Source: Octopus sinensis (Eukaryota). From it: DNA of 64,000 nucleotides. Of this stretch, positions 4,784 through 63,762 are shown piece by piece (positions within the stretch are counted from its first letter, which is position 1; each line of letters begins with the position of its first letter). The notes under the pieces are model-generated. The model was not told the DNA's origin, did not search any database, and worked only from the letters and a program-made list of their open reading frames with translations. Both the position numbers and the translations under genes were made by a program. The stretch spans positions 37,150,464 through 37,214,463 of the forward strand of contig NC_043011.1 in the NCBI RefSeq assembly GCF_006345805.1, given 5' to 3'.

Positions 4784-4823
4784 CGGAGACTAGTTTCAGA
4801 GTCATTGCTCATCATCAGTCTGG
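4784..4823 (-). ncRNA. Minimal type-I hammerhead ribozyme motif
   Basis: Minus strand: ccaga CUGAUGA u GAG-caauga-CUC u GAAA c-ua-g UC uccg. Core intact, palindromic stem III (ACUAGU), GUC triplet, imperfect stem I. Confidence 0.7.
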
Positions 4824-6161
4824 TGTAGCATGGCTTGCTAGCTGTCGATGCCTATCTGCCTTTGTAAACATATAATAATTCAAGTGAAATACATTCACTG
4901 ATTTCGAAAATAGAAACAATACGTTTCTAAATCTCTCTTCCCTTTCATGGGACTGTCACATTTATATGTATATATATATATATATGTGTGTGTGTATATA
5001 TATATATATATTTTTATATATTATATATATATATATATATATGTGTCTATATATATATATATATATATATATATATATATATGTATATATATATATATAT
5101 ACTATATATATTATATATATATATTATATATATATATATATACACACATATATGTGTACATGCGTGTGGGTGTGTTCCATCTATTCCGCTAAAACCAATC
5201 GTCGTTAAATTTTTACGCCCTACAAATTAGCAGTTCGCTTAAAGAGTTCAATAGTATAAGTGTCCTGCTAGTGATCAAGTCTTCCAGTAACGCTATATTG
5301 TCGTGCTCCAGCATGTCAATAGTTATAATGTATGAAACAAGTACAAATGCAAAGAAGTAAAGAAAATAATGAATAGAACAGGATAGCATACACTGATGGG
5401 ATATGTAAATTTTGACTGGAGAATTTGGCAGATATATGTCAATAATATGTGACTTGACACACAAAGAATATTAGAGTGATATCTTTATAACGTGATTTCC
5501 ATCTTAGTGACATTTTCATCTGTAAATTATCACAGCTTGTTTTTTTCACACATAACTAACTTATTGCTGCATTTCACTTAACGCCTAAGTTACACTTAAC
5601 TGAAGAAATGGATATTTCATGCGCTATCTTGTATGACTTTGCTTCTTGTCATTCTGGAAGTAAAGTTCAATGAGTAAAGAATTGTAGACTTCCAAAAACT
5701 CCGAGAGCCTGCCAAAATTATGTGTGTTGTATGCATACAAAGGTAAATACACACGCACGCATGCACGTGCACACACACAAACACACACTATAAATCTATT
5801 CGTTCTTTTGCACAAATTCATATGTGTAACCCTCCTTCTTTCCTTATTTCCTGAGCGTCCAATAATACTATACTTGTTCCACGTCTTCGCGTTGTTGTGT
5901 TTTCTCTTTGTGTTTTCATGTTTGGATTAACTTTATATATATATGTATGTATTTATGTATGTATGTATCTCTCTCTCTCTCTCTCTATCTATCTATTTTT
6001 CTATCTATCTATCTATCTATCTATCTATCTATCTATCTATCTATCTATCTATCTATCTATCTATATCAATCTATCTATCTATCTATCTATCTATCTATCT
6101 CTCTCTCTCTCTCTCTCTATATATATATATATATATATATGGGGAGAGAGGGAGGGGGAAA

Positions 6162-6800
6162 TTTGATCAGAAAACAAACATCTAATTCGAGTCAATGACT
6201 TTATGTAACACCACGCTTCCATACATTTGATCATATATATATATATATATATATATATATATTATATATATATATTATATATATACTACCATAGCTTTTA
6301 ACATATAAAAAGAATACATATAAAAGAAACACAGAAGTTAAAAATTATATATATTCAAATAAGAATACAATTATGTAGAACGGCTTATCAAGAATGTATA
6401 TAAATTCAAGTAAAAATTCTGAAGCCTTTCATGCGACCAAAAACCTAAATAAAATACCAATCCACTAAAAATCTTTTACTCCCCCAAATTAGAAATATGT
6501 CAATAAAGTTCATCTCTTAAAAGCCATGGTAGACTGGAGTCCAGGAGCGTAAGAGAGTTTTAGAAAATCAAGTCAAACACATGAAATATTTTTAGTCGAT
6601 TGATATTTTTTTAGGGTTTTAGTTGCATGACACACTTTAGAATTTTTATTCGATTCTGTATACATTCTCGATAGGCCGTTCTATATATTTGTATTATGAA
6701 TTTTTTTTTATATATTGAAGGCCATGGTAATATATATATATATGATCAAAGGTATGGAAGCGTGGTGTTTACACGAATTTGATGCTTGTTCTCAAATCAA
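6162..6800. repeat. Nested inverted repeats separated by (TA)n
   Basis: Outer arms gtaacaccacgcttccatacatttgatcata (~6205-6235) / tatgatcaaaggtatggaagcgtggtgtttac (~6741-6772). Inner diverged arms ~6285-6475 / ~6585-6730. Confidence 0.7.
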
Positions 6801-6944
6801 TGTTTTTTAATCTCTGTCTCACTTTTATTTGAGCACTTCTGTTTTTGTAGTCTTATAAACGCTTTTGACTCCGTAAAAAGAGAGGAAAATTATTTCATGT
6901 CGTATATATATATATATATATATATATATATATATATATCTCTA

Positions 6945-7220
6945 TGAACGACCAGGCTATCAGATGTTGCTACACATTGCTGGTCACAATGCGCTTCGTA
7001 TTGTTTTAGCCTTCAAATGACGCCACCCCACTGGCTAACCGAGCAGGCCAACAACAGAGAGAGTGAGAGAAAGTTGTGGCGAAAGAGTACAGCAGAGATC
7101 GCCACCGTCACCTGCCGGAGCTTCGTGAAGCTTTTAGTTGTTTTCGTTCAATAAACACCCACAGCGCCCTTTCTGGGAATCGAAACCGCGATCCTACGAA
7201 CGCGAGTCCACTCCCCTAAC
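6945..7220 (-). mobile_element. tRNA-derived SINE
   Basis: Minus-strand head gaggcgcaatggccctgttgttagg...ggactcgcg...ggatcgcggtttcgattccc (A/B boxes). A related head lies at 23108. Confidence 0.7.
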
Positions 7221-7996
7221 AACAGGGCCATTGCGCCTCTACACCACACACACACACACACACACACACACACACACACACACAGAGAACACACACACAC
7301 ACACACACACACACACCGGTGCATTCTCTGATGGCCCGAAGAAGACCACTGAACCCGATTGCTTTTTTTTCTGTATTGTTACCATTAGCCCTGTCTTTTC
7401 TTGTGCCCTTGCGTATATAGACGCATGTATGAACCTTTATGGTGTGCGTGTTTGTGTGTGGGGGTTTGTATGTATATACATATACATTTGGCGAATAGTA
7501 AGAGTGAGGATGTGTATGTTTTCAAGTGAGGGTGGACGAACGTATACTTTTAGGCTCACGCACATGGGTGTCCGGGCGAACATGTGTAAGTATGAACAAG
7601 CGCGTTTACGCGAATATTTTGAACTATTTAACCCCTTACTTAGCGGTCATCCAAATAGCTCTTTTGTCTTAATAACGCTAAATCACACGGTAATTTCCCT
7701 TTGTATAACAGTCATTTTTCATAGCATTTTTCCGATGGTCGGATAACTAAAGAGATAGCGGCGTGGATTTCCACCTCATGATCCGAAACTCTGAGTTTTA
7801 TCATGGCTACCGAATAATTGTCACATATTACATTTATAGACAAATTCATCTATCTAAATAATATCGAGGTCTCTGTCTCTCTCTCTCTCTCTCTCCTCTC
7901 TCTCTCTATATCTATATATATATATATATATATATATATATATATATATATATAATATATATATATATATATATATATATGTATATATATATATAT

Positions 7997-8250
7997 AGTA
8001 GAAATACTTTACGTAAAGAAAATATAAAATACACGTGGAAGTGTAAGGGTAAAATATGAAAGATCAACGAAAATGCATATTGCAAATAGAAAAAGGTTAT
8101 TTATGACAGGCAGTGACAAATATATACATTTAGATTTACTGAGGTAGTAATGCGAGTCATAAAGGTCATTATTATGAGATGATTATATGATGATAATAAA
8201 GTAAGAGAACAAATCGAACCAGTGGTTTACGCGAAGGCTATTCATCGTTT
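7997..8250 (+). mobile_element. (TA)n-bounded short interspersed element (copy 1)
   Basis: Same termini and body as the inverted copy at 45425-45622. Both are flanked on both sides by (TA)n. Strand is arbitrary. Confidence 0.7.
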
Positions 8251-8324
8251 ATATATATATATATATAATATATATATATATATATATATATATATAATAT
8301 ATATATATATATATATATATATAT

Positions 8325-61557: not shown

Positions 61558-61762
61558 TGTTGTCTATAAAGCGAGCTTCCTTAGTACGCTGCTTTACGGC
61601 AGTGAGACGTGGAGCCGCTACCACAGACAGGGACGGCGTCTCAATGACTTTCACCTTCCTAATCTGAGACATCAAGTGTACCGACCACATAACCAACACC
61701 GAAGTTCTCAACCAAGCCAAGATACCCAGCATACGCATCTGGCTCCAGCAGCGCCGTTTGCA
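61558..61762 (+). mobile_element. RTE-clade LINE RT C-terminal fragment
   Basis: VYKASFLSTLLYGSETWSRYHRQGRRLNDFHLPNLR, then after a frameshift ..DHITNTEVLNQAKIPSIRIWLQQRRL. Confidence 0.75.
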
Positions 61763-61766
61763 CTTT

Positions 61767-62212
61767 CTCGTTTCAGTCATTTGACTGCGACCCTGCTGGA
61801 AGCACCACCTTTAGTTGAACAAATCAACCCCAGGACTTATTCTTTGTAATCCTAGTACTTATTCTATCGGTCTCTTTTGCCGAACCGCTAAGTTATGGGG
61901 ACGTAAACACACCAGCATCGATTGTCAAGCAATTTTGGGGGGACAAACACAGACACACAAACGTATACACACACATACATACATACGCACACACACACAC
62001 ACACACGCGCGCATATATATATATATATATATATATATATACGTATATACATCGAGCTTCTTTCAGTTTGCGTCTACCAAATCCACTCACAAGGCTTGGG
62101 TTGGCCCGAGGCTATTGTAGAAGACACTAGCCCGAAGTGCCATGCAGTGGGACTGAACCAGGAACCATGTGGTTCATAAGGAACTACTTACCACATAGCC
62201 ACTCCTACGCCT
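61767..62212 (-). mobile_element. CORE-type SINE family B, full length
   Basis: Same consensus as 18069-18433, including the tRNA-like head. Confidence 0.8.
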
Positions 62213-63019
62213 ATGTATGTAAACGCTACAAATAAACAATTCTGTCGTTAGCTTTTCAGTATTGAATTTATACATTTAAATATTTAATATTTTTATCTAC
62301 GTTCCTTCAGACGGGTCCTTTGTAAATCGTTGCATATTAATAAGCGGATCCTTTTTTTTTATGTTGTGAATCTAGACCATAAACATGGACACTATTTACG
62401 CTGTAGAAAAGAATCTTGTCTCCGATATCAGATTTTATAATTAGAAATCTAATGTGCAATTCAGTTCAATAACAGCTGGATAATTATCAATTGTTTCTGA
62501 ATTTCAAATTATAAATCTGAACAAATGCAACTTGCCTTGCATAATTAGAGAACACTGTGATATTCAATACGCACAGAATGTGGCATGCATAATTATATGC
62601 AATAAATAAATAGATAGATAAAGCCGTACTGTAATTCATATACAGTTTGTTTAATGCAATACGATGTGTCTATAATATCAGTGTTTACAGCATGGAGAAA
62701 AAAAACAACTTCATAACGTACATGTAGGCATAGCTCAAGACTTCTTTCTGAACACTTCGAAGTCAACGGGTAACACGGAAACTTAGGCAAAATGCATATA
62801 TTACGATATTCATAAAACAAAAATTCTGCATATATATTATATGTGTGTGTATGTTTCTGTGTCTGGATGCATGTATGTGCGTTTGTGTGCCTGTGTGTTT
62901 ATATATATACATACCATATGTACATATATACATATATACACATATATATATATATATATACATATATATATATATATATATATATATATATATATATATA
63001 TATATATATATATATAATA

Positions 63020-63280
63020 TATATAATAATGATATAAAAACCAACTTACAGGGAAAAATCAGATTTATGATTGAATCTAATTTTATAGTAAAATATTATA
63101 TTATATTAAATTAGAGATAAAACCACTATTAGGCAAATCATACAATGAAAAACTTAAGCCAATATATCTTTAATAATTTTGTTATATTTTTAAATAATAT
63201 AAATTAATAATCTTATGTATTGGCTTAAGTTTTTCATTGTATGATTTGCCTAATAGTGGTTTTATCTCTATTGAATATAA
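63020..63280 (-). mobile_element. (TA)n-embedded fold-back element with asymmetric tail (copy 2 of 4299-4505)
   Basis: ~50-bp arms tagagataaaaccactattaggcaaatcatacaatgaaaaacttaagccaata and its reverse complement, plus the shared tail. Confidence 0.8.
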
Positions 63281-63710
63281 TATATATATATATATATATA
63301 TAATATATATATATATATATATATATATATATATAAATATATTCAGTTATTCATTTTCTTGTTTCAGTAATTTGATGCGGCCATTCTAGAGCACCACATT
63401 TAGTCCAACACATTGAACTCAGGACTTATTCTTTGTAAGCATTGTATTTATTCTATCCGTCTCTTTTGCGGAACCGCTTTATTACGGGGACGAAAACACC
63501 ACCAACCTCGGTTGTCAAGCGATGGTAAGGGACAAGCACGCGCACACACACACATACACACACACACACACAAATATATACATGGTATTTATAGAATGTT
63601 AAACACTTTCGGTATGTAAATTAGGGACTCCTTCGGAGAGTAATTGCTGCATTTGTTGAGTATATAAACCGTTTGTCTGCTTGTTTCTCTGGAGACTGTC
63701 AAAATGATGT

Positions 63711-63762
63711 GGACGCCTCTGATGAAAACCTAAGAAGGTTCGAAAATCGATTCAGGTTGTTC
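63711..63762 (+). ncRNA. Minimal type-I hammerhead ribozyme motif
   Basis: ggacgccu CUGAUGA a AACC-uaagaa-GGUU c GAAA aucgau UC agguuguuc. Core intact, stems I and II pair, palindromic stem III. TATA-like tatataaa lies ~50 nt upstream. Confidence 0.75.

Follow-up and report, generated by a model that had tools for sequence, protein, structure and literature searches.

Minimal hammerhead motifs in an octopus genome as the probable residue of several Penelope-type lineages

A 64,000-nucleotide (nt) stretch of the Octopus sinensis genome (contig NC_043011.1, positions 37,150,464 to 37,214,463; hereafter, the window) carries six short motifs with the topology of the hammerhead ribozyme. What kind of element do these motifs belong to, and how were they copied into place? 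The first-pass annotation read them as a single multi-family system of tiny, retrozyme-like elements embedded in (TA)n microsatellites. Our analysis indicates instead the residue of several lineages. We consider it probable that the motifs represent five families of minimal hammerheads of Penelope type: two are ends of coding elements, two are head-to-tail units lacking an open reading frame (ORF), and one is a dispersed unit, all inserted by Penelope machinery from RNA that was mostly uncut. The classification of the families is firmer than two further steps discussed below, namely that the short copies are leader stubs and that the ribozyme cores are attenuated.

All six type-I minimal hammerheads are present where they had been placed, on the same strands and with the same stem-III palindromes. 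Allowing at most one core mismatch and requiring a stem II of at least 3 base pairs (bp), a palindromic stem III and a stem I of at least 2 bp, a descriptor matches the window seven times (the six motifs plus a weak match at 13034 on the plus strand). In contrast, 25 local dinucleotide shuffles made in 100-nt blocks gave a mean of 0.28 matches and a maximum of 1. The excess over a shuffled control extends to the genome at large. Among 100 evenly spaced 10-kb stretches (999,600 bases), the descriptor finds 48 matches versus 13, 5, 6 and 7 in four shuffles, and a perfect core with a stem I of at least 3 bp occurs 12 times in the real sample and never in the shuffled ones. The net density of 40 motifs per Mb corresponds to about 110,000 per genome (78,000 to 148,000). 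The density of the window is typical of the genome, since at 48 per Mb the chance of at least five motifs in 64 kb is 0.20. The sampled DNA also holds at least six additional hammerhead families. One sampled locus (L249:1-3300) holds a 557-nt tandem array whose units each contain a canonical-core hammerhead, and at another (L216:830-1060) a 73-nt hammerhead unit occurs in tandem and inverted copies.

Each window motif is a member of a genome-wide family, and the five different sequences recognized in the first pass correspond to five families, designated F1, F2, F4, F5 and F6. Five first-look searches returned 2771, 2353, 1587, 880 and 1624 family candidates, with 40 scored per search; for each family the 30 best-matching loci, picked by BLAST, were aligned, and counts out of 30 refer to these sets. 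Two of the six motifs, at 32381 and 33242, lie in a single local duplication (~920 nt, 98% identity, period 860 nt) that includes non-element DNA, so the number of independent insertions is five. A perfect core is found in only two of the window copies, those at 4784 and 63711; the remaining four (32381, 33242, 53745 and 59871) bear core changes that are fixed by family.

Two of the families lead upstream into coding elements. The F5 copy in the window (hammerhead 59871-59908; element 59864..59943, plus strand) is an 80-nt stub with a U4C core, flanked by (TA)n on both sides, and it matches the pseudo-long terminal repeat (pLTR) of an intact element, L361, at 76 of 84 nt. Walking upstream from F5 copies crosses a non-coding stretch of ~1.2 kb and then reaches a GIY-YIG-type ORF (L303, L300). 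A protein search revealed a young F5 subfamily with long open frames (L356-L363, L366 and L367; e.g., G000:C2:97795500-97802500), which run to 703-766 codons, include intact 727-codon copies and have a mean identity of 98.3% over eight copies. Six of the 10 young full-length copies carry a hammerhead in both pLTRs, ~3.35 kb apart and enclosing a frame of 721-766 codons. In intact elements the open frame begins at the ribozyme cut site and passes through the tail into the ORF. Judged from its sequence, the L361 protein has the RWK, DKT and YRDD motifs and lacks CCHH, matching the description of the Hydra clade; the CxCX5C linker is present in the older copy L331, and the young L361 is without the second linker cysteine. 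Of 850 homologs of the F5 protein, many carry PF26215 and one is listed with PF01541. A "Nematis-like" label for this parent was rejected after the motif check.

The F4 copy (hammerhead 53745-53783; element 53657..53788, minus strand) is the 132-nt end of an element whose coding part resembles Neptune. It has an A13C core, a stem I of 2 bp and a C-C apposition at the base of stem II, and it starts 10 nt upstream of C3. The upstream walk from F4 encounters an ORF with a reverse transcriptase (RT) thumb, a CX4CxxC linker and a GIY-YIG domain (L316, L321, L325 and L327). The linker precedes the C-terminal GIY-YIG in the translations of L321, L316 and L327, which fits the Neptune pattern CX2-5CxxC, and the Pfam match to GIY-YIG is weak and below the cut-off (E 0.0009-0.0014). 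The 25 F4 loci reach the thumb, linker and nuclease only, and a search with a 157-aa piece returned no homologs of greater length. By these predicted protein motifs, and not by a tree, the F5 parent is a Hydra-like and the F4 parent a Neptune-like Penelope-like element (PLE). The hammerhead lies within the pLTRs of the coding element in F5 and downstream of the ORF in F4; both families have two alternative 3' ends with an optional tail between them. For a lizard element studied in vitro, such an optional tail is ascribed to reverse transcription that starts internally at either of two sites (PMC11167929). The proposed tie between minimal type-I hammerheads and PLEs of several families is upheld by the motif in F5 pLTRs and by F4 beside a Penelope ORF. 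The description of the elements as tiny suits the window copies and fails for F4 and F5 as families, since both continue upstream into coding elements.

F1 (~347 nt) and F6 (~303 nt) are closed ORF-less units in which the 3' end continues into the unit's own 5' start. A head-to-tail partner was found at 19 of 30 F1 and 11 of 30 F6 loci, and at none of the 30 loci of either F2 or F4. In the window, F1 (hammerhead 4784-4823; element 4589..4937, minus strand) is represented by a single retrozyme-like unit of ~347 nt with a predicted cut after 4788, a U10.1-U11.1 mismatch closing stem II and a decayed stem I, which is 6 bp in the family. At its 5' junction lies a short inverted piece of F1 (4938..4963, plus strand), a 5' inversion typical of Penelope-like insertions. 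The F6 copy (hammerhead 63711-63762; element 63581..63830, plus strand) is truncated at its 5' end and has a canonical core, and its 3' end continues into (TA)18. The retrozyme-like label is apt for F1 and F6 as ORF-less head-to-tail units, and not for F4 and F5 as ends of coding elements. The F1 module is also joined, at about the same base in L370 and L372, to the 3' end of a LINE (long interspersed nuclear element)-like element, presumably of the L1/Tx1 group; the chimera of L372 is present twice, head to head, as if it had moved as one RNA.

F2 is a dispersed unit of ~200 nt with fixed ends and no tandem partner. The first window copy (hammerhead 32381-32416; element 32291..32470, minus strand) comprises ~180 nt of the unit, has an A6U core and ends at its 3' side in (TA)n; the second (hammerhead 33242-33277; element 33152..33331, minus strand) sits inside the local duplication, 32231-34011. 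F2 is the commonest family, with 16 copies in the 1-Mb sample (19 BLAST matches minus three of a sister family, F8) and an estimated 43,000 copies in the genome (25,000 to 71,000). The F8 core is CCGACGA or canonical, and F2 and F8 have a stem-III palindrome in common, through which they could pair as heterodimers. In both families the 5' ends are fixed 70-85 nt upstream of the core; at L008, L152, L232, L276 and L303 these ends resemble what we take to be YY1 and ETS promoter motifs. Two F2 copies have a further ~170-200 nt upstream in common, and the window contains two hammerhead-less 3' fragments of F8, at 5841-5951 and 23683-23773 (both plus strand). Penelope ORFs lie near three of 30 F2 and two of 30 F6 loci; as candidate parents they were rejected, being unrelated neighbors.

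Partial tandems, 5' inversions and tails are the marks of Penelope-like insertion given in the legend of Fig. 2 of PMC8557442. Inverted partners occur at 20 of 30 loci in both F1 and F5, at seven in F4 and at one each in F6 and F2. A (TA)4 or longer tract lies near the 3' end of all 30 F5 loci, 24 each of F4 and F6, 17 of F2 and four of F1, against a background of 15%; these counts may be too high, because the loci were BLAST-picked with queries that stopped at the microsatellite. Three families thus target (TA)n, one does so more weakly and F1 does not. The embedding in (TA)n that had been proposed for all of the elements holds for most families, with F1 at background. At several loci families are nested in one another's (TA)n tails, giving mixed arrays (L276:8500-9020; L216:2000-2450; L114; L303; L295).

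What, then, has happened to the ribozymes? In the BLAST-picked copies the family-majority core is canonical in F1 and F6. Position 6 of F2 is U in 27, C in two and A in one of 30 copies (A6U), position 13 of F4 is C in all 30 (A13C), and the F5 subfamily of the window has U4C in all 30; in the youngest F5 subfamily the core is canonical and stem II is closed by an A-A pair. The F2 change is seen as well in 23 copies that were not BLAST-picked, in which position 6 is never A (21 U, two C), all four bases occur at position 7 and every base except G at position 17. We aligned 43 F2 and F8 sequences (two partly deleted copies of 45 and one truncated copy excluded, the window copy included). Stem I contains a C-G to G-C swap, and 92% of cells pair, versus 18-50% when the partners are slid. 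Stem I pairing in F4 is weak (2 bp). All five stem-III palindromes form self-duplexes of -1.7 to -8.3 kcal/mol and none forms a hairpin; in the F5 palindrome the center base varies and the arms are kept. According to PMC3088659, U4C is found in viroids and is little active in vitro, the activity of A6C is low as well, and a U10.1-U11.1 mismatch like that of F1 is tolerated. A literature search turned up no hammerhead paper with A6U or A13C; Lunse et al. 2017 and its supplements were outside the scope of this search, so these changes are at most candidate novelties. From these sequences, cores with A6U, A13C or U4C and intact stems would be expected to cut weakly or not at all. Rescue of the crippled cores in trans, by an intact family carrying an identical palindrome, was considered and rejected: two candidate families in the 1-Mb sample have matching palindromes, but their stem I is mismatched by eye.

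The 5' ends of copies bear on whether the RNA was cut before it was copied. F5 was scored genome-wide, taking copies whose 5' end is joined to a TA tract (minus-strand counts, one row per locus). Just upstream of stem I there are 119 such ends, with seven in the core, five at the cut site and eight ~10 nt beyond it. In the young subfamily, 58 ends fall at the peak versus none ~50 nt further upstream. Moreover, 33 of 38 BLAST-picked F5 copies reach no more than 14 nt upstream of stem I, and the full-length copy L360 begins at the same 5' point as the stubs. For F4, 12 of 30 copies end within 10 nt of C3 and the other 18 form a continuous tail of truncations 22-450 nt upstream. Nearly all F2 and F8 copies retain the sequence that precedes the cut site; a start near that site is seen in two F8 fragments (window 5841 and L365; 2 of 27), too few to show cleavage. 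Because the peak lies upstream of the ribozyme and not at the cut site, the copied RNA was likely mostly uncut, F5 being the one family tested genome-wide. The cycle of cleavage followed by copying that the first-pass annotation implied finds no peak at the F5 cut site. The F5 peak may mark the start of transcription, which is the reading we prefer; an RT stall or microhomology may also account for it.

A mechanism that would accommodate these patterns begins with a Penelope reverse transcriptase-endonuclease that would nick (TA)n or AT-rich DNA and insert copies there. The protein would bind RNA just downstream of the hammerhead, and internal priming at one of two sites would yield the optional tail. 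If a priming site also lay near the 5' end of the transcript, copying to the RNA 5' end would give stubs of 80-155 nt that start just upstream of stem I. Stem III would be completed only in dimers. In the tandem F1 and F6 units, with their canonical cores, slow dimer cleavage could release unit-length or circular RNA, and cleavage by the changed cores of F2, F4 and the window subfamily of F5 would be weak or absent. Weak cutting might cost little or even help, because uncut RNA would be the template. It is conceivable, although we hold it only tentatively, that Penelope elements in this genome mass-produce uncut 5'-leader copies in this way, each leader comprising start site, hammerhead and internal priming site, and that the A6U, A13C and U4C changes fixed in the most successful short families turn the hammerhead into a slow or silent fold recognized by the reverse transcriptase.

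Several results weigh against the Penelope interpretation and its extensions. No Penelope ORF was found beside F1 at 30 loci or at 20 further loci, nor a coding parent for F6 or F2 at 30 loci each, so that for these three families Penelope mobilization is argued from insertion marks. In F2 such marks are nearly nil (one inverted partner and no tandem in 30, and no tail). The 766-aa F5 parent protein itself matches nothing in Pfam or PDB, the clade placements come from motifs, and the (TA)n counts may be inflated as described. The nearer upstream control for the F5 peak holds 39 counts, mostly at an internal TA run, and is thus confounded; the peak itself coincides with a short stretch of element sequence resembling TA and could therefore be produced by microhomology or by an RT stall at the fold. 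The single informative covarying pair of F2 and F8 is inherited by the two families. Core changes and life style do not go together: A13C and U4C are both found among coding families, and in the youngest F5 subfamily, with its A-A pair, the core is canonical. Because U4C falls within a CpG, decay by itself is enough to restore the canonical base. Moreover, the entire case is built from DNA sequence, with cleavage and expression as predictions.

How do other explanations fare against the same observations? That AT-rich, microsatellite-rich DNA yielded the motifs by chance is scarcely credible. Rfam at gathering score gives no match in the window or at eight loci, and nothing up to E 10 around 63711; a permissive scan of the window has no hammerhead among the 150 of 304 matches listed, which are dominated by microsatellite matches to microRNA models. 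Four window copies also miss a core base, and the shuffles themselves yield 5-13 matches per Mb. However, the excess over shuffled sequence both in the window and in the 1-Mb sample, the 12 strict matches versus none, and the motif in both pLTRs of intact elements already refute chance. A broader retrozyme model, in which all five families are active dedicated non-autonomous retrozymes that cleave as dimers, circularize their unit RNA and insert at (TA)n, appears improbable to us. It draws on the ORF-less head-to-tail organization and canonical cores of F1 and F6, on the 557-nt tandem array and the 73-nt unit with hammerheads elsewhere in the genome, and on F2 positions 7 and 17, which obey hammerhead rules. 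However, the model is already refuted for F4 and F5 by their coding parents; none of 30 F2 loci has a tandem partner, the 5' ends of F5 do not peak at the cut site and F1 has no TA bias.

The stubs might instead be ordinary 3'-anchored, 5'-truncated copies, made when reverse transcription from the downstream pLTR has just passed the fold and there either stalls or anneals to the target by TA-like microhomology, with the motifs as passengers and the core changes as neutral drift in dead ribozymes. We regard this as rather unlikely, even though the continuous longer truncations in 18 of 30 F4 copies (22-450 nt) and the position of the F5 peak at a TA-like stretch are what it predicts. It can also cite an in vitro system in which hammerhead mutants had no effect on insertion (PMC11167929) and an earlier attribution of single motifs to truncated elements (PMC4209133). 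Against it, full-length L360 starts at the same 5' point as the stubs, the fixed F2 and F8 ends lie 70-85 nt upstream of the core and not at the fold, and subfamilies with differing 5' flanks preserve both the stems and the N7/H17 pattern. We therefore retain Penelope-inserted families copied from mostly uncut RNA as the probable account.

The association of Penelope with hammerheads is known; what appears to be new here is the host, the core variants and the 5'-end pattern. Minimal hammerheads in metazoan Penelope pLTRs, with thousands of single copies and many families, were described by Cervera and De la Pena 2014 (PMC4209133). The octopus motifs resemble them in being type-I, in a palindromic stem III that needs a dimer, in a short stem I and often an extra base before stem II, and in thousands of single copies, opposite-strand pairs and pLTR position. 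They differ in the family-fixed A6U, A13C and U4C, where that paper reports U3-A8, and in number, at about 100,000 motifs per genome versus 2,000-9,000 there, although the descriptors differ. The available portion of that paper does not mention an octopus host. Microsatellite targeting by the Hydra and Neptune clades is published, with nearly all Hydra-clade families inserting in (TA)n (Craig et al. 2021, PMC8557442). Compared with these endonuclease-containing PLEs, the F5 parent shares RWK, DKT, the lack of CCHH, the hammerhead, (TA)n and, in an older copy, CxCX5C, and the F4 parent shares the CX4CxxC linker before GIY-YIG; the young F5 parent differs from the Hydra clade in being without the second linker cysteine, and its placement is by motifs, not tree.

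Non-LTR (long terminal repeat) animal retrozymes are ORF-less tandem units (Cervera and De la Pena 2020, PMC7229834), and a preprint by Li, Clavereau and Pollet 2026 (10.64898/2026.07.22.740005) traces such units back to pLTRs and admits minimal hammerheads among them. F1 and F6 match these accounts as AT-rich, ORF-less, head-to-tail type-I units of 150-450 nt. They differ in occurring mostly as dispersed monomers and as partial tandems with 5' inversions, and in their hammerheads, which are minimal and not of the canonical loop-loop type; they are known here as DNA. F2, F4 and F5 do not fit. An experimental parallel is the Poseidon element of Anolis carolinensis (Frangieh et al. 2024, PMC11167929). 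Its hammerhead lies where pLTR and ORF meet, its optional tail results from two internal start sites, its targets are AT-rich and its main template is uncut RNA; it belongs to another clade and host, and in its available text the paper has neither 5'-leader stubs nor natural core variants. Our literature searches turned up no description of such hammerheads in octopus or other cephalopods, nor of leader stubs, family-fixed core changes with stems kept or a 5'-end pile-up upstream of the ribozyme. The word ribozyme is absent from the portion of main text available for a recent octopus repeat annotation (PMC13282606).

Other features of the window can be set apart from these families. The end of a decayed Penelope-like ORF (18602..19532, minus strand), with RT thumb region, linker and GIY-YIG nuclease, belongs to an older, different Hydra-type family. 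As helper or parent of the six motifs it was rejected, since that family carries a long 3' region of its own and a different hammerhead-like motif with a long stem II. Two such decayed GIY-YIG ORFs had been announced; a second was not found in the window with Hydra- and Neptune-type queries and a 60-protein profile (Penelope/Poseidon and Naiad queries were not used). Pfam gave no match on the window ORFs. CUGAAGA-like boxes at 46260-46950 and 63880-64000 were rejected as candidates, being outside the descriptor and without a type-I hammerhead fit; both repeats recur in L369, and the first also in L344. Fold-backs lie at 51562-52083, 4294-4504 and 63017-63280; they comprise an inverted repeat of at least ~140 nt that encloses a TA tract, and two short repeat ends, arranged head to head, that are flanked by TA tracts. 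Tandem copies of abundant short interspersed nuclear elements (SINEs), presumably the SINEs known from octopus genomes, occupy 2650-3031, 26872-27231, 56429-56827 and places elsewhere.

The hammerhead of PLEs is common, cuts poorly and was dispensable for insertion in one in vitro system. The octopus genome offers a natural series that bears on its role, from tandem units with canonical cores, through abundant families with changed cores, to a young, apparently intact Hydra-like element and its stubs. Annotation is affected too, since Rfam misses about 100,000 of these motifs and the stubs could readily pass for unclassified SINEs. If the stubs are leader copies, they would explain why a genome holds so many single hammerheads and would show uncut RNA to be the template. 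If the core changes do tame the ribozyme, the A6U family of ~40,000 copies would form a SINE-like class that is driven by Penelope and has a tamed ribozyme as its defining feature. With the young intact Hydra-like element, what the ribozyme does could then be tested directly.

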